9,590 nucleotides of DNA from Escherichia coli (GTDB taxonomy: Bacteria > Pseudomonadota > Gammaproteobacteria > Enterobacterales > Enterobacteriaceae): the NCBI RefSeq assembly GCF_003334255.1, contig NZ_QOWU01000087.1; one strand, written 5' to 3'. The notes under the pieces were generated by a model. The model was given only the letters and a program-made list of their open reading frames with translations. It searched no databases and had not been told where the DNA came from. Positions 1 through 9,590 of this stretch are shown piece by piece. A program made the translations under genes and the position numbers. Position 1 is the first letter of the stretch, and each line of letters starts with the position of its first letter.

Positions 1-79
1 AGTTATCGTGAGAGTAATTCATCGGCACGTTAAATCATATCAGGCGTAATACCACAACCCTTAAGTTAGCGCTTATGGG
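1..79. repeat. Left terminal inverted repeat, 79 bp, exact reverse complement of 9512-9590
   Basis: Reverse-complementing 9512-9590 by hand reproduces bases 1-79 with no mismatch. The match breaks at position 80 (g on the left, t at 9511 on the right). Beyond that there is a weaker imperfect match (left gtaaaacccc versus the reverse complement of right gggggttttt). Confidence 0.93.
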
Positions 80-109
80 GTAAAACCCCGCGTACTGAAT
101 TGTGATGGT

Positions 110-260
110 TTGGTCTCCTGCACCCTTTTTTAATTTATATTGTTTATGTGAATATTATGCCTATGTTTATTATTCATATATATTACGGATGAAAATTATT
201 TGATTATTCATAATGTAAATATTTTATTGAATGATATATATCACAGATAATTTTTAATAT
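110..260 (+). promoter_or_regulatory. AT-rich region upstream of cas3, putative promoter and possible nucleoid-protein binding region
   Basis: A long, very AT-rich run (ttttttaatttatattgtttatgtgaatattatgcc...cacagataatttttaatat) lies directly 5' of the cas3 ATG and contains several TATAAT-like hexamers. No specific -35/-10 pair can be assigned with confidence. A regulatory role is inferred by analogy to H-NS-silenced cas promoters in Enterobacteriaceae. Confidence 0.4.
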
Positions 261-2960
261 ATGCGTAAATATCCTTTAAGTTTACTGAAGGATAAAAATA
301 TTGTGACTTTTTTTGATTTCTGGGGAAAAACCCGACGCGGCGAGAAAGACGGGGGCGACGACTATCACCTTCTTTGCTGGCATTCGCTGGATGTAGCCGC
401 GATGGGCTATTTAATGGTTAAAAGAAATTGCTTCGGGCTGGCTGATTATTTTCGTCAATTAGGGATTTCTGACAAGGAACAGGCGGCTCAATTTTTCGCC
501 TGGTTGCTGTGCTGGCACGATATTGGAAAATTTGCCCGCTCTTTTCAACAACTTTACCTGCCCCCTGAACTCAAGATTCAGGAAGGTGCCAGAAAAAATT
601 ACGAAAAAATCTCTCATTCAACGCTGGGCTACTGGTTGTGGAATCATTATTTAAGTGAATGTCAGGAGTTACTTCCTTCATCTTCGCTCTCTCCGCGCAA
701 ACTTAGGCGAGTGATAGAAATGTGGATGCCCGTGACGACAGGGCATCATGGTCGGCCCCCTGATCGTATGGATGAATTGGATAATTTTCTGCCTGAAGAC
801 AAAGCTGCAGCACGAGATTTTCTCCTTGAAATCAAACCACTGTTTCCGCTCATAGAGATCCCCGCATTCTGGGATGATGATGAGGGCATTGAACTTATAA
901 AACACCTTTCCTGGTATATCTCTGCAACCGTCGTGCTCGCAGACTGGACGGGTTCGTCAACGCGATTTTTTCCACGCGTCGCACACCCAATGGATATTAA
1001 AGGTTACTGGCAGAAAACTTTAATTCAGGCTCAAAACGCCTTAACCGTCTTTCCTCTAAAAGCAAAAGTCGCGCCTTTCAACGGAATTAATACGCTGTTT
1101 CCTTTTATTGAGAATCCGACACCGTTACAGCAAAAGGTGCTGGATCTGGATATCAGCCAGCAAGGACCGCAGTTATTTATTCTGGAAGATGTGACTGGCG
1201 CAGGTAAAACAGAAGCGGCGCTTATCCTGGCGCACAGGTTGATAGCTGCGGGGAAAGCTCAGGGGCTGTTTTTTGGTCTGCCAACAATGGCAACGGCCAA
1301 TGCCATGTACGATCGGCTGGTCAAAACCTGGCTTGCTTTCTATTCGCCAGAATCCCGCCCCAGCCTGGTGCTGGCACATAGTGCCCGCACATTAATGGAC
1401 CGCTTTAATGAATCACTCTGGTCTGGTGATTTAGTCGGGTCAGAAGAACCGGATGAACAAACGTTCAGTCAGGGATGTGCGGCCTGGTTTGCCGACAGTA
1501 ACAAGAAGGCGTTGCTGGCTGAAATTGGCGTCGGCACGCTGGATCAGGCGATGATGGCGGTGATGCCGTTCAAACATAATAATCTGCGGCTTCTGGGGCT
1601 GAGTAACAAAATCCTGCTGGCTGATGAGATCCACGCCTGTGACGCTTACATGTCGTGCATTCTTGAAGGGTTGATCGAGCGGCAGGCGCGTGGCGGAAAC
1701 AGCGTTATTTTGCTTTCTGCCACGTTATCTCAACAGCAGCGCGACAAACTCGTCGCTGCCTTTGCGCGGGGTACAGAGGGCCAGCAAGAAGCTCCGTTCC
1801 TGGAAAAGGATGATTACCCCTGGCTGACGCATGTCACGAAATCCGATGTGAACTCACACCGGGTAGCGACGCGCAAAGACGTTGAGCGTAGCGTCAGCGT
1901 GGGTTGGCTTCATAGTGAACAAGAGTGTATTGCGCGTATCGAATCGGCGGTAAGTCAGGGGAAATGCATCGCCTGGATCCGGAATTCTGTCGATGACGCT
2001 ATTAAGGTTCATCGTCAGCTGCTTGCCCGCGGCGTCATTCCTGCTTCCAGCCTTTCACTTTTTCATAGCCGCTTTGCTTTTAGCGATCGCCAGCGAATTG
2101 AAACGGAAACGCTGGCACGCTTTGGTAAATATTGTAGTTTACAGAGAGCGTCGCAAGTCATTGTTTGTACACAAGTAATTGAGCAAAGCGTGGATATTGA
2201 CCTGGACGAAATGATCTCCGACCTGGCCCCTGTTGATTTGCTGATTCAGCGAGCAGGACGATTACAGCGGCATATCCGCGATATTAATGGTCAGTTAAAG
2301 CGTGACGGAAAGGACGAGCGTTCCCCCCCTGAATTGCTGATTCTGGCTCCCGTCTGGGACGACTCTCCTGGCGACGAATGGTTTGGCAGTGCCATGCGTA
2401 ACAGTGCATTTGTCTATCCCGATCATGGGCGAATCTGGCTGACGCAGCGTGTGCTGCGTGAGCAAGGTGCTATTCAGATGCCACACGCAGCCCGGCTTCT
2501 TATTGAATCCGTCTACGGTGAGGACGTGGTAATGCCGGAAGGATTTGCCCGCAGCGAGCAGGAGCAAGTGGGCAAATATTACTGTGATCGCGCAATGGCT
2601 AAAAAGTTTGTGCTGAACTTCAGGCCCGGCTATGCCGCCAATATCAACGATTACCTCCCGGAAAAACTGTCGACACGTCTGGCTGAGGAGTCTGTTTCCC
2701 TGTGGCTGGCTACCTGTATTGACGGTGTGGTGAAGCCTTATGCCACCGGTGCTCACGCATGGGAAATGAGCGTTGTCAGAGTGCGCCGGAGCTGGTGGAA
2801 AAAACATCGGGATGAGTTTTCTTTACTGGAGGGAGAGGCGTTCAGGCTGTGGTGCATTGAACAGCGACAAGATCCGGAGATGGCAAACGTGATTTTAGTC
2901 AACGATGACGAAAGTTGCGGGTATTCGGCTACGGAAGGATTGATTGGCAAGGTTGGTTGA
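261..2960 (+). CDS. cas3: Cas3, type I HD-nuclease / SF2 helicase
   Basis: 899-aa ORF. The N-terminal HD domain shows HLLCWHSLDVA and CWHDIGK (HD motif). Helicase motifs follow: Walker A TGAGKTEAA, motif II LLADEIHACD, SAT, and motif VI QRAGRLQRH. It sits at the head of a cas operon. The start at 261 has no obvious Shine-Dalgarno, so the start codon is less certain than the stop. Confidence 0.93.
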   Translation: MRKYPLSLLKDKNIVTFFDFWGKTRRGEKDGGDDYHLLCWHSLDVAAMGYLMVKRNCFGLADYFRQLGISDKEQAAQFFAWLLCWHDIGKFARSFQQLYLPPELKIQEGARKNYEKISHSTLGYWLWNHYLSECQELLPSSSLSPRKLRRVIEMWMPVTTGHHGRPPDRMDELDNFLPEDKAAARDFLLEIKPLFPLIEIPAFWDDDEGIELIKHLSWYISATVVLADWTGSSTRFFPRVAHPMDIKGYWQKTLIQAQNALTVFPLKAKVAPFNGINTLFPFIENPTPLQQKVLDLDISQQGPQLFILEDVTGAGKTEAALILAHRLIAAGKAQGLFFGLPTMATANAMYDRLVKTWLAFYSPESRPSLVLAHSARTLMDRFNESLWSGDLVGSEEPDEQTFSQGCAAWFADSNKKALLAEIGVGTLDQAMMAVMPFKHNNLRLLGLSNKILLADEIHACDAYMSCILEGLIERQARGGNSVILLSATLSQQQRDKLVAAFARGTEGQQEAPFLEKDDYPWLTHVTKSDVNSHRVATRKDVERSVSVGWLHSEQECIARIESAVSQGKCIAWIRNSVDDAIKVHRQLLARGVIPASSLSLFHSRFAFSDRQRIETETLARFGKYCSLQRASQVIVCTQVIEQSVDIDLDEMISDLAPVDLLIQRAGRLQRHIRDINGQLKRDGKDERSPPELLILAPVWDDSPGDEWFGSAMRNSAFVYPDHGRIWLTQRVLREQGAIQMPHAARLLIESVYGEDVVMPEGFARSEQEQVGKYYCDRAMAKKFVLNFRPGYAANINDYLPEKLSTRLAEESVSLWLATCIDGVVKPYATGAHAWEMSVVRVRRSWWKKHRDEFSLLEGEAFRLWCIEQRQDPEMANVILVNDDESCGYSATEGLIGKVG

Positions 2961-3057
2961 GATGTCTGCGACAGGACTCTCTGAATAGTTGATACACCGA
3001 AAAGGATGGAAAGATGGACAACCGACCTGGGATGGTCTTTTTTACGAGAGGATGCGT

Positions 3058-4620
3058 ATGAACTCGTTTTCACTTCTGACAACCCCGTGGTTGCCCGTTC
3101 GTTTTAAAGACGGAACGACAGGCAAACTGGCGCCAGTCGATCTGGCGGATGAAAATGTTGTCGATATTTCTGCGCCGCGGGCAGATCTCCAGGGTGCGGT
3201 ATGGCAGTTTTTGCTGGGGCTACTACAAACCAGCTTCGCGCCAAAAGATCATCGTCGTTGGGATGATATCTGGGAAGACGGACTGGAAGCTGAAAAGCTA
3301 CGGGAAGCATTGCAGTCATTAGAACATGCTTTCCAGTTTGGGCCAGATTCCCCTTCATTTATGCAGGATTTCGAGGCGCTCACCGGAGATAAAGTTCCGG
3401 TCGCTTCGCTACTGCCTGAGATTCCCGGCGCTCAAACAACGAAGTTTAATAAAGACCACTTTATCAAGCGTGGTGTAACGGAATACCTGTGCCCACATTG
3501 TTCTGCGTTAGCTCTGTTCTCCCTACAGTTGAATGCGCCGTCAGGTGGCAAAGGCTACCGCACCGGTTTACGCGGCGGTGGGCCGATGACCACTCTGATT
3601 GAATTACAGGAATATCAGGGTAATCAACAAACTCCCTTGTGGCGCAAACTGTGGATCAATGTCATGCCGCAGGATGAAGCCGATTTACCGCTACCCAAAA
3701 AATTTGACGATCTGGTTTTCCCCTGGCTTGGCCCGACGCGCACCAGCGAACTGGCCGGTGCGGTGGTAACCGATGAGCAGGTCAATAAACTCCAGGCGTA
3801 CTGGGGAATGCCTCGCCGTATTCGTATTGATTTTAATACCACGACAGTCGGCAACTGCGATATTTGCGGTGAGCAGAGCGACGCGCTCCTGAGCCTGATG
3901 ACGACCAAAAATTACGGTGCGAATTATGCCATGTGGCAGCATCCCTTAACGCCTTACCGTGTACCACTTAAAGAGGGTGGCGAGTTTTACTCCGTTAAAC
4001 CACAACCGGGCGGTTTAATCTGGCGTGACTGGTTAGGCCTTATCGAAACGGGTAAATCAGAAAACAATACGGAACTTCCCGCGCTGGTGGTGAAACTCTT
4101 CAATGCCAGCAGTCTCAAGCAGGCAAAAGTGGGCCTGTGGGGATTTGGCTATGATTTCGACAACATGAAAGCGCGCTGTTGGTACGAACACCATTTCCCG
4201 CTGCTGCTCGATAAAAAAGAAGGTCAGATACCGAAGCTGCGGCTGGCTGCGCAAACAGCTTCACGGATTCTAAGTCTGTTACGGAGTGCATTGAAAGAAG
4301 CATGGTTCTCCGATCCAAAAGGTGCAAGGGGTGATTTTAGTTTTGTGGATATCGACTTCTGGAACAAAACTCAGCATCGCTTTCTGAGGTTAGTGCGCCA
4401 AATTGAAGAAGGTCAGGATGCGGATGAATTACTCAGCAAATGGAATAAGGAAATTTGGTTATTCGCACGTCAGGATTTTGACGAGCGTGTATTCACCAAT
4501 CCTTATGAGCCCGTTGATCTGGAACGCGTCATGACCGCGCGCAAGAAATATTTTACAACATCGGCGGAGAAGCAAAGTGCTAAAGCCGCCAGGGAGAAAA
4601 AGCAGGAGGCTGCTGAATGA
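3058..4620 (+). CDS. casA: Cse1/CasA, large subunit of the type I-E Cascade complex
   Basis: A large ORF immediately after cas3 and before cse2, in the conserved I-E order. I chose the ATG at 3058 (MNSFSLLTTPWLPVRF...) because GAGAGG lies 7 nt upstream as a Shine-Dalgarno. The ORF-track start at 2989 lacks one. The stop TGA at 4618-4620 overlaps the casB ATG. Confidence 0.88.
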   Translation: MNSFSLLTTPWLPVRFKDGTTGKLAPVDLADENVVDISAPRADLQGAVWQFLLGLLQTSFAPKDHRRWDDIWEDGLEAEKLREALQSLEHAFQFGPDSPSFMQDFEALTGDKVPVASLLPEIPGAQTTKFNKDHFIKRGVTEYLCPHCSALALFSLQLNAPSGGKGYRTGLRGGGPMTTLIELQEYQGNQQTPLWRKLWINVMPQDEADLPLPKKFDDLVFPWLGPTRTSELAGAVVTDEQVNKLQAYWGMPRRIRIDFNTTTVGNCDICGEQSDALLSLMTTKNYGANYAMWQHPLTPYRVPLKEGGEFYSVKPQPGGLIWRDWLGLIETGKSENNTELPALVVKLFNASSLKQAKVGLWGFGYDFDNMKARCWYEHHFPLLLDKKEGQIPKLRLAAQTASRILSLLRSALKEAWFSDPKGARGDFSFVDIDFWNKTQHRFLRLVRQIEEGQDADELLSKWNKEIWLFARQDFDERVFTNPYEPVDLERVMTARKKYFTTSAEKQSAKAAREKKQEAAE

Positions 4621-5153
4621 GTATTGTAAAAGAGGAGCACAAAGCCACGCTGCGCAAATGGCACGAGGAATTGCAGGAGAAACGTGGCGAACGTGCCAGT
4701 CTGCGGCGTAGTACGACGGTTAATGATGTTTGTCTGACGGATGGATTTCGCCTGTTTCTGAAGAACAGACAAATAAAGTGGCAGGATGAACCTGAGTGGC
4801 GTATCACCGCACTGGCGCTGATAGCCGCAGTTAGCGCCAATGTTAAAGCTATTGATGAACGGCAGCCTTTTGCCGCGCAGCTGGCGGCGGTAATGTCAAA
4901 GGGGCGTTTTACTCGTCTGTCGGCAGTAAAAACACCGGATGAATTACTGCGCCAGTTACGCCGCGCAGTCAGATTATTAAACGGTTCCGTCAATCTTGAC
5001 TCTCTGGCAGAGGGGGTCTTCCGTTGGTGCCAGGAGAGCGACGACCTGCTCAATCATCACCGCCGCCAGCAGCGGCCAACCGAATTTATCCGTATCCGCT
5101 GGGCGCTGGAATATTACCAGGCTGGCGACGCCGATAACGAACAAAATCAATAA
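4617..5153 (+). CDS. casB: Cse2/CasB, small subunit of Cascade
   Basis: 178-aa ORF in the expected position between cse1 and cas7. AGGAGG lies at 4604-4609, and the ATGA overlap with the casA stop indicates translational coupling. The assignment rests mainly on size and synteny. The sequence is not close to K-12 CasB as I recall it. Confidence 0.8.
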   Translation: MSIVKEEHKATLRKWHEELQEKRGERASLRRSTTVNDVCLTDGFRLFLKNRQIKWQDEPEWRITALALIAAVSANVKAIDERQPFAAQLAAVMSKGRFTRLSAVKTPDELLRQLRRAVRLLNGSVNLDSLAEGVFRWCQESDDLLNHHRRQQRPTEFIRIRWALEYYQAGDADNEQNQ

Positions 5154-5164
5154 AGGACTATCTC

Positions 5165-6220
5165 ATGACAACATTTATTCAGCTTCATTTGTTAACCGCT
5201 TACCCTGCTGCCAACCTTAACCGTGATGATACCGGTGCGCCAAAAACTGTGGTGCTGGGTGGAGCAACGCGTCTGCGCGTTTCCTCGCAAAGTCTGAAAC
5301 GTGCGTGGCGCACTTCTGCACTTTTTGAACAGGCACTGGCGGGCCATATTGGTATTCGCAGTGGGCGTATTGCGCGTGAGGCGGCAACTATCCTGATTGA
5401 GAAAGGAATCGAAGAGAAAAAAGCCATCGAATGGGCGGCAAAAATTGCAGATTATCTTGGGAAAGCTAAAAACGACAAAAAACCAAAAGATCCGCTCACT
5501 AACGCCGAAACTGAACAGTTAGTCCATATCAGCCCGGCAGAATTTGACGCCGTAAAAGTGCTGGCCCATCAGCTTGCAGAAGAAAAGCGCGCGCCAAAAG
5601 AGGAAGATCTCGCGTTGTTACGCAAAGACCGTATGGCGGTAGATATTGCCATGTTTGGTCGTATGCTGGCGAATAAACCCGAGTTTAATGTTGAAGCCGC
5701 CTGCCAGGTAGCGCACGCATTTGGTGTCAGTGAAACGATTGTCGAAGATGATTTTTTCACCGCCGTTGATGATTTGCGCCAGGCTTCTGAAGATGCCGGT
5801 GCCGGGCATCTTGGTGAAACCGGATTCGGTTCTGCACTGTTCTACACCTATATCTGCATTGATAAAGATCTGCTGGTCGAAAACCTTGGCGGTGACGAAG
5901 CGTTAGCTAATCAGACCATACGTGCCTTTACGGAAGCCGCACTTAAAGTCTCCCCAACCGGCAAACAGAACAGCTTTGCCAGCCGTGCCTACGCCTCCTG
6001 GGCGCTGGCAGAAAAAGGCACCGATCAACCGCGTTCTCTGGCGGCAGCTTTCTATGAACCCATTAATGGCACCCGTCAGTTAGAGGTGGCGGTGCAGCGT
6101 ATTACAACTCTTCGCGAAAATATGAATACGGTCTACGAACAGAAGACCGATTACGCAAGTTTTGACGTGATGAACAAACAGGGAAGCATGAAGGACGTGC
6201 TGGACTTTATCTGCGCGTAA
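5165..6220 (+). CDS. casC: Cas7e/CasC, Cascade backbone subunit
   Basis: 351 aa. The N-terminus (LLTAYPAANLNRDDTGAPKTVVLGGATRLRVSSQSLKRAWR) matches the conserved Cas7e N-terminal motif (..LNRDD...GG.RR.R.SSQSLKRA.R). AAAGGA lies upstream as a Shine-Dalgarno. Confidence 0.92.
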   Translation: MTTFIQLHLLTAYPAANLNRDDTGAPKTVVLGGATRLRVSSQSLKRAWRTSALFEQALAGHIGIRSGRIAREAATILIEKGIEEKKAIEWAAKIADYLGKAKNDKKPKDPLTNAETEQLVHISPAEFDAVKVLAHQLAEEKRAPKEEDLALLRKDRMAVDIAMFGRMLANKPEFNVEAACQVAHAFGVSETIVEDDFFTAVDDLRQASEDAGAGHLGETGFGSALFYTYICIDKDLLVENLGGDEALANQTIRAFTEAALKVSPTGKQNSFASRAYASWALAEKGTDQPRSLAAAFYEPINGTRQLEVAVQRITTLRENMNTVYEQKTDYASFDVMNKQGSMKDVLDFICA

Positions 6221-6230
6221 GGGGCGGCTT

Positions 6231-6977
6231 ATGAGCCAATATCTGATTTTTCAGCTTCATGGGCCGATGGCGTCCTGGGGTGTCGATGCTCCAGGTGAAG
6301 TTCGTCATACCCATGAACTTCCTTCGCGCTCAGCATTGCTGGGGCTACTGGCTGCCGGGGTAGGGATTCGGCGTGATGATACCGAACGCTTAAACGCGTT
6401 TAATCGCCACTATTCACTGGTGGTTTGCGCCAGCCGTAACCCGCGCTGGGCACGGGATTATCACACGGTCCAGATGCCAAAAGAGGTGCGTAAAGCACGT
6501 TATTTCAGCCGTCGCGAAGAGTTGAGCGACCCTGAGCTTTTGAGCGCGATTATCTCCCGGCGCGACTACTACACCGATGCCTGGTGGATGGTGGCGGTGG
6601 CAACAACCCCCGATGCGCCTTACAGCCTCGAACAGTTGCAGGACGGTTTACGCCATCCGGTTTTTCCGCTTTATCTGGGGCGAAAAAGTCATCCGCTGGC
6701 GTTACCACTTGCGCCGTTACTGCTCGAAGGCAACGCGTCTGATGTCTTACGTAACGCATACCAACAGTATCAGGATCGTTTCCGCGAACTGAAAGTCTCA
6801 CTCCCGAAACTTCAGGATGAATGCTGGTGGGAAGGGGAGCACGATGGTTTGGTCGCAAGCAAAATATTACGCCGCCGGGATGTTCCTTTAAATCGTCAGC
6901 AGTGGCTGTTTGGGGAACGCACCATCAATCAGGGGCCGTGGCTCAGCAAGGAGGAACCATGTACCTCTCAAGAATAA
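6231..6977 (+). CDS. casD: Cas5e/CasD, Cascade subunit
   Basis: 248 aa. The N-terminus (YLIFQLHGPMASWG...SALLGLLAAGVGIRRDD) closely parallels the K-12 CasD N-terminus as I recall it (YLILRLAGPMQAWG...SGLLGLLGACLGIQRDD). It sits in the correct operon position. Confidence 0.92.
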   Translation: MSQYLIFQLHGPMASWGVDAPGEVRHTHELPSRSALLGLLAAGVGIRRDDTERLNAFNRHYSLVVCASRNPRWARDYHTVQMPKEVRKARYFSRREELSDPELLSAIISRRDYYTDAWWMVAVATTPDAPYSLEQLQDGLRHPVFPLYLGRKSHPLALPLAPLLLEGNASDVLRNAYQQYQDRFRELKVSLPKLQDECWWEGEHDGLVASKILRRRDVPLNRQQWLFGERTINQGPWLSKEEPCTSQE

Positions 6978-7605
6978 CCTTACATACCGGCCAGCTTTCG
7001 CCTGCGCAGTTGCTGCATCTGGTGGATCGCGGTGAATATGTGATGCATCAGTGGTTGTGGGATCTCTTCCCTGGCGGCAAAGAAAGGCAATTTCTTTATC
7101 GTCGGGAAGAACTCCAGGGCGCGTTTCGCTTTTTTGTCCTCTCGCAGGAACGCCCGGCGGAAAGTGAAACTTTCACCATCGAATGCCGGTCATTTACGCC
7201 CGAGCTGAGTACCGGACAACAACTTTGTTTCAACCTGCGGGCGAATCCAACAATCTGTAAAGCGGGCAAGCGCCACGATCTGCTGATGGAGGCGAAACGG
7301 CAGGTGAGGGGACAGGCGGAAGGAAGTGATGTCTGGTTGCATCAACAACAGGCGGCGCTGGACTGGCTGGCAGCGCAGGGGGAAAGAAGTGGTTTTACAC
7401 TACTGGATACCTCGGTTGATGCCTACCGACAACAACAACTCCGGCGGGAAAACTCCTGGCAACTGATCCAGTTCAGTAGTGTGGATTATACGGGGATGCT
7501 TACGGTCACCGATCCTGGGTTATTTCTGCAACGTCTCAGTCAGGGGTATGGCAAAAGCCGGGCGTTCGGTTGTGGTCTGATGCTGATCAAACCTGGAGCA
7601 GAGGC

Positions 7606-7609
<4 letters not shown>
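6959..7609 (+). CDS. casE: Cas6e/CasE, pre-crRNA endoribonuclease
   Basis: I chose the internal ATG at 6959 (MYLSRITL...), which has AAGGAGG at 6948-6954. Cas6e proteins begin MYLS.., and this gives about 216 aa rather than the 262-aa track ORF. The C-terminal glycine-rich motif GYGKSRAFGCGLM is typical of Cas6e. The gene overlaps the casD 3' end by 19 bp. Confidence 0.88.
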
Positions 7610-8819
<1,210 letters not shown>

Positions 8820-8915
8820 GTTATCCGTTCTTTAAAAATAAGGAAATGTTTTAATTTAGTTGGTAGATTGTTGATGCGGAATAAATTTGTTTAAAAACAG
8901 TTATGTATGCTTAGT
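8820..8915 (+). promoter_or_regulatory. CRISPR leader, AT-rich, expected to hold the pre-crRNA promoter and integration signals
   Basis: A 96-bp AT-rich stretch between the cas2 stop and the first repeat (ttatccgttctttaaaaataaggaaatgttttaatttagttggtagattgttgatgcggaataaatttgtttaaaaacagttatgtatgcttagt). Its position and composition are typical of I-E leaders. No individual promoter or IHF site is assigned. Confidence 0.75.
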
Positions 8916-9493
8916 GTGTTCCCCGCGCCAGCGGGGATAAACCGAACATTAAATTGCCGTGCTGGATGAATCGCGGGTGTTCCCCGCGCCAGCGGGGATA
9001 AACCCTGGATCAGCTGGTTCAATCGTTTACAGCACTGGTGTTCCCCGCGCCAGCGGGGATAAACCGTCGTTCGAGGCGTTTCGCGCCTGGGCGATTATGT
9101 GTTCCCCGCGCCAGCGGGGATAAACCGTCGAAAAACTTCGTCCTGAAAAAATTCATCATGTGTTCCCCGCGCCAGCGGGGATAAACCGGCAGTAAATTAT
9201 TTGACCTCGTTGATAATCCCGTGTTCCCCGCGCCAGCGGGGATAAACCGCCGGTGCAACTGATATTGATAAACGTCGACTCGTGTTCCCCGCGCCAGCGG
9301 GGATAAACCGACACCCGACCGCTAACCGATTTCGTTACAGTAGTGTTCCCCGCGCCAGCGGGGATAAACCGACGTCTATCATTTTCAGTACAAGCTGGGT
9401 TTTGTGTTCCCCGCGCCAGCGGGGATAAACCGCCGGTGTAATCAAAGAGAAAAATCGCCTTTTTGTGTTCCCCGCGCCAGCGGGGATAAACCG
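8916..9493 (+). CRISPR. CRISPR array, 10 direct repeats of 29 bp (GTGTTCCCCGCGCCAGCGGGGATAAACCG) and 9 spacers of 32 bp
   Basis: Repeats start at 8916, 8977, 9038, 9099, 9160, 9221, 9282, 9343, 9404 and 9465, a strict 61-bp period. The repeat carries the palindromic core CCCCGCG..CGCGGGG characteristic of Enterobacteriaceae I-E repeats. Repeat 2 ends in C rather than G. The leader is on the cas2 side, so transcription is on the + strand. Confidence 0.97.
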
Positions 9494-9511
9494 AGTTAAG
9501 AGGGGGTTTTT

Positions 9512-9590
9512 CCCATAAGCGCTAACTTAAGGGTTGTGGTATTACGCCTGATATGATTTAACGTGCCGATGAATTACTCTCACGATAACT
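9512..9590. repeat. Right terminal inverted repeat, 79 bp, exact reverse complement of 1-79
   Basis: See the left copy. It begins 18 nt after the last CRISPR repeat. Confidence 0.93.

Follow-up and report, generated by a model that had tools for sequence, protein, structure and literature searches.

The 9590 nt stretch of Escherichia coli DNA considered here (contig NZ_QOWU01000087.1 of assembly GCF_003334255.1, called the window throughout) carries eight adjacent cas genes followed by a CRISPR array, and inverted repeats lie at its two ends. This raises the questions of what the locus is, whether it is as complete as it looks, and whether it moves as a unit. The window is almost certainly the chromosomal CRISPR-I locus of E. 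coli, found between cysH/hok and iap, in the prevalent cas-E1 variant of the type I-E system. The locus is already known and so is the class of arrangement to which it belongs, namely cas-E1 with insertion sequences (ISs) of the IS186 family. An earlier note on this DNA, made from the sequence alone, had rated the novelty of the family as low, and this is borne out: at least 80 % of the window is present in 2412 of the 5426 complete E. coli genomes searched with megablast (~44 %). Two of these, ETEC4073 and ETEC1706, are 100 % identical over window positions 1-9371, and many RefSeq genomes are 99-100 % identical to the window. The RefSeq gene context in the relatives is cysI-cysH-hok-IS421-cas3...cas2-CRISPR-iap-cysD, with a Hok/Gef gene, which lies outside the window, annotated upstream of the locus.

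The subtype was assigned from the following genes, with lengths in amino acids (aa) and matches to NCBIfam (TIGR accessions) and PADLOC models.

261-2960, plus strand: cas3, HD nuclease fused to a superfamily 2 (SF2) helicase, 899 aa; TIGR01587 and TIGR01596 over their cut-offs; best PADLOC match Cas3e
2961-3057, plus strand: gap between cas3 and casA, 97 nt
3058-4620, plus strand: casA (cse1, cas8e), large subunit of Cascade, 520 aa; TIGR02547 at 610 bits against a cut-off of 70, full length; PADLOC Cas8e
4617-5153, plus strand: casB (cse2, cas11e), 178 aa; TIGR02548 at 99 bits against a cut-off of 28.5; PADLOC Cas11e
5165-6220, plus strand: cas7e (casC), 351 aa; TIGR01869 at 445 bits; PADLOC Cas7e
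6231-6977, plus strand: cas5e (casD), 248 aa; TIGR01868 at 160 bits; PADLOC Cas5e
6959-7609, plus strand: cas6e (casE), endoribonuclease for the precursor CRISPR RNA (pre-crRNA), 216 aa; TIGR01907 at 289 bits; PADLOC Cas6e
7606-8529, plus strand: cas1e, with a GTG start, 307 aa; TIGR03638; PADLOC Cas1e
8526-8819, plus strand: cas2e, 97 aa; TIGR01873; PADLOC Cas2e

All eight open reading frames (ORFs) are uninterrupted, with a length divisible by 3 and a single terminal stop, and all eight proteins match I-E-specific NCBIfam models above the curated cut-offs and have I-E models as their best PADLOC matches. The gene order, cas3-cse1-cse2-cas7-cas5-cas6e-cas1-cas2 and then a leader and array, is that of type I-E. 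Adjacent genes overlap at casA/casB (ATGA), cas5/cas6e (19 bp), cas6e/cas1 (GTGA) and cas1/cas2 (ATGA), and purine-rich Shine-Dalgarno-like motifs precede seven of the eight starts, that of cas3 being the exception. From the tight overlaps, co-translation of the Cascade and adaptation genes appears likely. Eight uninterrupted I-E genes in canonical order had been described in the earlier note, and both the ORF table and our own parsing agree with it; each of the overlaps it gave is exact, and the profile search that it proposed as a check returned subtype I-E with NCBIfam as well as PADLOC, and no other subtype.

The residues on which activity would depend are also in place. Cas3, when aligned to structures 4q2c and 4qqw/6c66, retains HDIGK (86), GHHG (161), the Walker A motif GAGKT (313), DEIH (455) and QRAGR (663), so that the HD motifs and helicase motifs I, II and VI are all present, and the HD and helicase models both score over cut-off. 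Cas1 retains E141, H208, D218 and D221 and is 85 % identical to the K-12 Cas1 (structures 3nkd/4p6i), and in an alignment of Cas6e with K-12 CasE (4qyz_K), His30 falls opposite the catalytic His20. The integrity claimed for the genes from their reading frames therefore extends to the checked Cas3 HD and helicase, Cas1 and Cas6e catalytic residues, none of which has an inactivating substitution.

Placement in the cas-E1 variant follows from comparison with the two E. coli forms described by Almendros et al. (2014, mBio, PMC3903273), in which cas-E1 is primary and prevalent and K-12 has the minority cas-E2 form. The K-12 system (structures 4TVX, 4QYZ and 5H9F, and 4P6I and 5DS4 for Cas1-Cas2) has the same subtype, gene order and chromosomal locus, the same catalytic residues and nearly the same repeat (GTG... 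here, GAG... in K-12). However, though Cas1 and Cas2 are 85 % and 86 % identical to those of K-12 MG1655, Cas3 and the five Cascade proteins share only 21-35 % identity with their K-12 counterparts. The G+C content also differs, with 51 % for the operon here and 44-51 % for the K-12 genes, and with 50-55 % for the Cas3 and Cascade genes here against 44-48 % in K-12; the reported means are 53.5 % for E1 and 45.6 % for E2 (PMC3903273), and the operon value of ~51 % is near the E1 mean. The window has more gene overlaps than K-12 and a cas3-casA gap of 97 nt rather than 414 nt, and K-12 has no IS at this locus. Strong divergence of Cas3 and Cascade from K-12, a higher G+C content, the variant (L1) leader and hok upstream in the relatives are thus all found. 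When compared directly with the cas-E1 CRISPR-I (CRISPR2.1) locus (PMC3903273, PMC3737337), the window has the same locus, gene set and order, the non-K-12 leader, hok upstream, AWG (CWT) protospacer-adjacent motifs (PAMs), and insertions of the IS186 family in GC-rich targets, one upstream of cas3 and one within the array. There is no substantive difference, the particular combination of spacers and ISs and an inversion (see below) aside.

The question of completeness turns on the array, the relevant parts of which are as follows.

8820-8915, plus strand: CRISPR leader of the L1 type that is paired with cas-E1, 96 nt, 26 % GC
8916-9493, plus strand: CRISPR2.1 array, portion nearest the leader, with ten repeats of 29 nt (GTGTTCCCCGCGCCAGCGGGGATAAACCG) and nine spacers of 32 nt
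9494-9513, plus strand: truncated tenth spacer, first 20 nt; the intact spacer, seen in relatives, is AGTTAAGAGGGGGTTTTTCCCCACCGTTCAGG

Six chromosomal relatives have an identical leader, for which the L1/L2 concept is that of PMC3903273, and 74 of its 96 positions agree with the leader of K-12. Repeats are spaced 61 nt apart, each of the nine spacers is exactly 32 nt long, and the fold of the repeat is a hairpin of 7 bp (-15.2 kcal/mol, z = -3.2); an Rfam scan of the window returned no family at gathering score, which says little for the repeat hairpin. Hence, the strictly 32-nt spacers and the conserved leader noted earlier stand. The description of the locus as complete and not decayed, with a 9-spacer array, does not, because an IS421 lies inside the tenth spacer and the array does not end at nine spacers or at position 9493. 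In ETEC4090, TO6, LZHX12, X14-3, UMNF18 and BS74R-D, the outer end of this IS is followed by a second copy of its 10-bp target duplication, the other 12 nt of the tenth spacer and then a repeat, and in ETEC4090 further array and iap come after these. From its sequence, the tenth unit is predicted to be unable to give a normal CRISPR RNA (crRNA), and the distal spacers are parted from the leader by a 1.3 kb IS, or lie across the locus where the segment is flipped.

Nor are the nine spacers an original set. When the arrays of relatives were parsed, spacers 1-9 were found in the same order inside longer arrays. All nine are among the 23 spacers of Res13-Lact-ER02-39, which has one more unit than the window between spacers 7 and 8 and eleven more between spacers 8 and 9. 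The window array is, in other words, a deletion derivative, and the cassette is bracketed by two IS copies, both of which also count against the description as complete and not decayed. The combination of these nine spacers, as left by the internal deletions, with both IS copies is absent from the 5426 complete E. coli genomes searched, and an exact metagenome scan for the window-specific junction of spacer 8, repeat and spacer 9 found no match.

Whether the locus moves as a unit depends on the two IS copies, only the inner ends of which are in the window.

1-77, minus strand: inner (5') end of the left IS421/IS186-family copy; 23-bp terminal inverted repeat at 55-77, transposase ATG at 22-20 on the minus strand (MNYSHDN...)
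78-87, no strand assigned: inner copy of the 10-bp target-site duplication of the left IS, GGGTAAAACC; the same 10 bp are at the outer IS end in N18-04097 and ETEC4090
9504-9513, plus strand: inner copy of the 10-bp target duplication of the right IS, GGGTTTTTCC, within the truncated tenth spacer
9514-9590, plus strand: right copy of the IS421/IS186 family, inner (5') end, in inverted orientation to the left copy; terminal repeat at 9514-9536, transposase ATG at 9569

Window positions 1-94 and 9497-9590 are inverted repeats, 79 nt of which are perfect, and they consist of the first 77 nt of the two inverted IS copies together with similar G-run/C-run targets. RefSeq names the element 'IS4-like element IS421 family transposase' in the relatives, where some IS421 copies are frameshifted. 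The terminal repeats (CATAAGCGCTAACTTAAGGGTTG, 23 bp), the 10-bp GC-rich target duplications and the IS4-type transposase are those of the IS186/IS421 group of the IS4 family, and with IS186/IS421, which uses targets of the GGGG-N-CCCC type, the copies share terminal repeats, 10-bp duplications and the MNYSHDN transposase start, though of each copy the window includes just 77 nt. IS186 prefers GC-rich targets (cited in PMC3903273), and both G-run/C-run sites here fit. The left IS sits 183 bp upstream of cas3. As exactly 77 nt of IS is present at each end, the window probably represents an entire contig of a short-read assembly, broken at the repeated IS (k = 77), and such a break would account for the resemblance of the window boundaries to terminal inverted repeats.

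An arrangement of this kind, in which near-identical inverted IS ends bracket a cassette exactly, has the classical layout of an IS-bracketed module and could be a composite transposon, in which the two IS421 copies and their contents move a complete I-E system as a unit. Exchange of the cas-E module in E. coli is known and IS186 has been implicated (PMC3903273). However, in relatives such as ETEC4090 a separate 10-bp direct duplication flanks each IS, GGGTAAAACC the left and GGGTTTTTCC the right, and this indicates two independent simple insertions rather than composite transposition; moreover, beyond the right IS come the remaining array and iap. The distribution of the two insertions also argues against joint movement: the IS upstream of cas3 is found in 326 genomes, and the junction of an IS with the tenth spacer in ~23-27, with both ISs in only ~25. 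The IS-bracketed unit was found only at cysH-iap and on no plasmid searched, and the sole plasmid copy of part of the system was moved by ISEcp1 and has no cas3. Neither a single outer duplication shared by the two ISs nor occurrence at more than one site was found, and a composite transposon is largely refuted and, in our view, extremely improbable. The target duplications likewise led us to reject the inverted repeats at the window ends as the ends of any discrete mobile element.

The plasmid records merit separate description. In the conjugative plasmid pIOMTU792 (LC542972, IncHI2A; positions 9001-21017 of locus L007), a 12 017-bp ISEcp1 transposition unit, flanked by the 5-bp duplication TCCCA, lies in a split DUF6012 gene and carries ISEcp1, blaCTX-M-15, wbuC, iap, a CRISPR array, the genes running from cas2 to casB and a 3' portion of casA, with no cas3. 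In a 2023 survey (PMC10101085), pIOMTU792 is entered as a 'plasmid origin' of CRISPR2.1 spacers, an entry that is probably an artefact, as the plasmid carries the array itself. A second IncHI2A record, MN732922 (positions 5001-5358 of locus L008), includes hok, the region upstream of cas3 and the first ~176 nt of cas3, in a segment 93.6 % identical to window positions 78-436, and has an IS421 copy ~270 bp beyond it; this is a piece of the same chromosomal locus carried on a plasmid. The plasmid matches H65-H67 were set aside as chromosomes filed as plasmids, the records being 4.8-4.9 Mb long.

What the IS pair does do is invert the segment between its copies, since recombination between inverted ISs flips the whole cas operon and the proximal part of the array. 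The segment is flipped in three of nine two-IS genomes examined (ECCHD184, G1/2 and 64EVA), where the array-side IS is followed by hok-cysH instead of the distal array and iap, and the flanks are chimeric, GGGGGTTTTTCC on one side of the IS and GGTTTTACCCCCGCG, the left outer flank in reverse complement, on the other. It is in the ancestral orientation in TO6, LZHX12, ETEC4090, X14-3, UMNF18 and BS74R-D. The window extends only from one inner junction to the other and is therefore compatible with either orientation of the segment in its own host. The words 'inversion' and 'inverted' occur 0 times in PMC3903273. Both orientations of the 9.4-kb segment are therefore present in natural isolates, and it is conceivable, albeit quite unlikely, that the inverted IS421 pair makes the cas-E1 operon and leader-proximal array a flipping segment that acts as an IS-built switch of CRISPR immunity. 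Were this so, with the flip recurring and altering cas or crRNA expression, possible routes would be uncoupling of the old distal array, a changed direction of the operon relative to replication, or altered read-through from neighbouring genes. On the same unlikely reading, the flipped segment could also be a visible intermediate toward the loss and replacement of the cas module that have been proposed for E. coli.

The spacers were expected in the earlier note to indicate what the cassette has encountered, and a search of them partly answers this. The nine spacers and the reconstructed tenth were searched against phages, plasmids and E. coli genomes, and spacers 1, 2, 4, 6, 7 and 9 were also scanned as exact patterns against IMG/VR. 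Five of the nine have credible targets; all of these lie in temperate phages, P2-like in four cases and lambdoid in one.

Spacer 3: 31/32, PAM AAG; lambdoid nin-region gene (phrog_319, RefSeq DUF1367) in phage vB_EcoM-705R4 and ~445 complete E. coli genomes
Spacer 4: 27/32, PAM AAG; the prophage of strain ZF8-1 that is also matched by spacer 8
Spacer 5 (9189-9220): 32/32, PAM ATG; gpW-like baseplate gene in P2-like viral contigs
Spacer 7 (9311-9342): 32/32, PAM ATG; gpJ-like baseplate gene in contigs shared with spacer 5
Spacer 8: 32/32, PAM ATG; large-terminase gene of a P2-family prophage in strain ZF8-1

For spacer 4, an estimated ~6e-8 such matches would be expected by chance in the 12-kb locus. 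The protospacers of spacers 5 and 7 (3693-3724 and 4520-4551 in locus L019) are 827 bp apart on the same strand of the same P2-like contigs. Two spacers on one P2-like phage and two more, spacers 4 and 8, on another P2-family prophage form the pattern expected of primed adaptation or of repeated exposure. An AWG motif, AAG or ATG, lies directly upstream of all five credible protospacers, and the two trinucleotides together correspond to the CWT motif of the non-K-12 variant described for O157:H7 (Diez-Villasenor et al. 2013, PMC3737337).

Spacers 1, 2, 6 and 9 have no credible target in phages, plasmids, E. coli genomes or IMG/VR; the exact IMG/VR scans found no match for spacers 1, 2, 4, 6 and 9, and all ten spacers found none among 72 556 plasmids at E<=1. 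A match of spacer 9 to Pectobacterium/Dickeya phages (29/32, E=0.05) is probably due to chance, as the flanking ATT is not a PAM and the mismatches are out of codon phase. Spacer 2, for which the searches of phages, plasmids and E. coli genomes and the exact IMG/VR scan found no target, follows a pattern of its own. The last base of a repeat is co-acquired with the spacer. Repeat 2 (8977-9005) ends in C, the other repeats in the window ending in G, and the C accompanies spacer 2 in all four relatives that have it; among 99 repeats counted, four end in C, all of them the repeat that goes with spacer 2, and 95 in G. This link of the terminal C to spacer 2 fits such co-acquisition, and the PAM of the protospacer that gave rise to spacer 2 was therefore probably atypical.

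Temperate phages of the types matched by the five spacers are common as E. coli prophages, and the spacer 3 target (31/32) alone is present in the ~445 genomes mentioned above, which is what would be expected if the spacers were directed at the host's own chromosome or resident prophages for self-regulation, a use raised in the earlier note. It was not borne out in the close relatives sampled. In the sampled carriers of the spacers, for instance Res13-Lact-ER02-39 with all nine and ETEC1716 with eight, the array is the only place that matches. The genomes that carry the protospacers do not have an array with these spacers, among the rows sampled, and no spacer matches the window outside the array with up to 8 mismatches allowed. 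We therefore consider a self-regulatory role very unlikely.

The content, order and integrity of the genes, their motifs, the hairpin repeat, the PAMs and the phage origin of spacers can all be read directly from these data, and the steps by which the system would act are taken from the literature on the K-12 and Thermobifida systems. Transcription of the array into pre-crRNA would be driven by the AT-rich leader, and Cas6e would cut each repeat at the base of the hairpin to release 61-nt crRNAs. Cse1, Cse2, Cas7, Cas5 and Cas6e would assemble with a crRNA into Cascade, which would bind DNA with an AWG PAM and recruit the Cas3 HD-helicase, leading to degradation of the target. New 32-nt spacers would be inserted at the leader end by Cas1-Cas2.

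How far this potential is expressed is less certain, and one further region has to be considered.

78-260, plus strand: AT-rich region upstream of cas3, presumed to be a promoter or regulatory region, 25 % GC, with no Shine-Dalgarno-like motif before the cas3 start

At 25 % GC, this region is a plausible H-NS target, and transcription starting in it may cover cas3 and the Cascade genes together. In K-12, the cas3-casA gap holds the Cascade promoter controlled by H-NS and LeuO. With a gap of 97 nt here and 414 nt in K-12, the K-12 promoter layout should not simply be assumed for this locus. By comparison with the H-NS-silenced K-12 system, expression under laboratory conditions is probably low.

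Several observations weigh against the reading of the locus as a working immune system. In every relative in which the leader end was captured, spacer 1 is the leader-proximal spacer, and the arrays vary by internal deletion only; together these indicate no sign of spacer acquisition since the strains diverged, and the array comparison argues against recent adaptation activity and would fit a silent system. Within the two-IS lineage there are inactivating lesions, namely a frameshift in cas3 in ETEC4090, a deletion from casA to cas2 that fuses the remnants in BS74R-D and an IS66 insertion at the array in ECCHD184. With a consensus promoter scan, the plus strand gave no site either in the leader or in the region upstream of cas3, a result that is uninformative, the promoter and terminator sites found being fewer than in shuffled sequences.

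The locus may then be a silent relic, intact in sequence but transcriptionally repressed, no longer adapting, and kept by drift or for a non-immune role. Beyond the deletion-only variation, the shared first spacer and the lesions in sister strains, this would be consistent with the array having been split by an IS and with the almost complete silencing of the system in K-12 derivatives in the laboratory; an immune role in E. coli is described as 'not evident' (PMC3903273). Against it, all eight genes and the checked catalytic residues are intact in the window, unlike the operons of several two-IS relatives, and the sequence is 100 % identical across several strains. The spacers match real temperate phages with the correct PAMs, three of them perfectly, and the authors of PMC3903273 themselves caution that conclusions from K-12 may not hold for cas-E1. 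On balance, a silent relic is a possibility to be taken seriously but is not the explanation that we favour; identification as the prevalent cas-E1 form of the chromosomal CRISPR-I locus is as given above.

The window is a standard E. coli I-E (cas-E1) locus, found in identical or almost identical form in many sequenced strains, and it matters little beyond bookkeeping. Only two items are mildly new, the inversion documented between the IS copies and the fact that the spacers concentrate on P2-like phages. Because the nine spacers are just the leader-proximal part of an array split by an IS, spacer counts or strain typing from this contig alone mislead. The spacers that could be identified record meetings with P2-like and lambdoid temperate phages, and their PAMs fit the non-K-12 acquisition motif. 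The IS copies around the locus cause both assembly breaks and real inversions.

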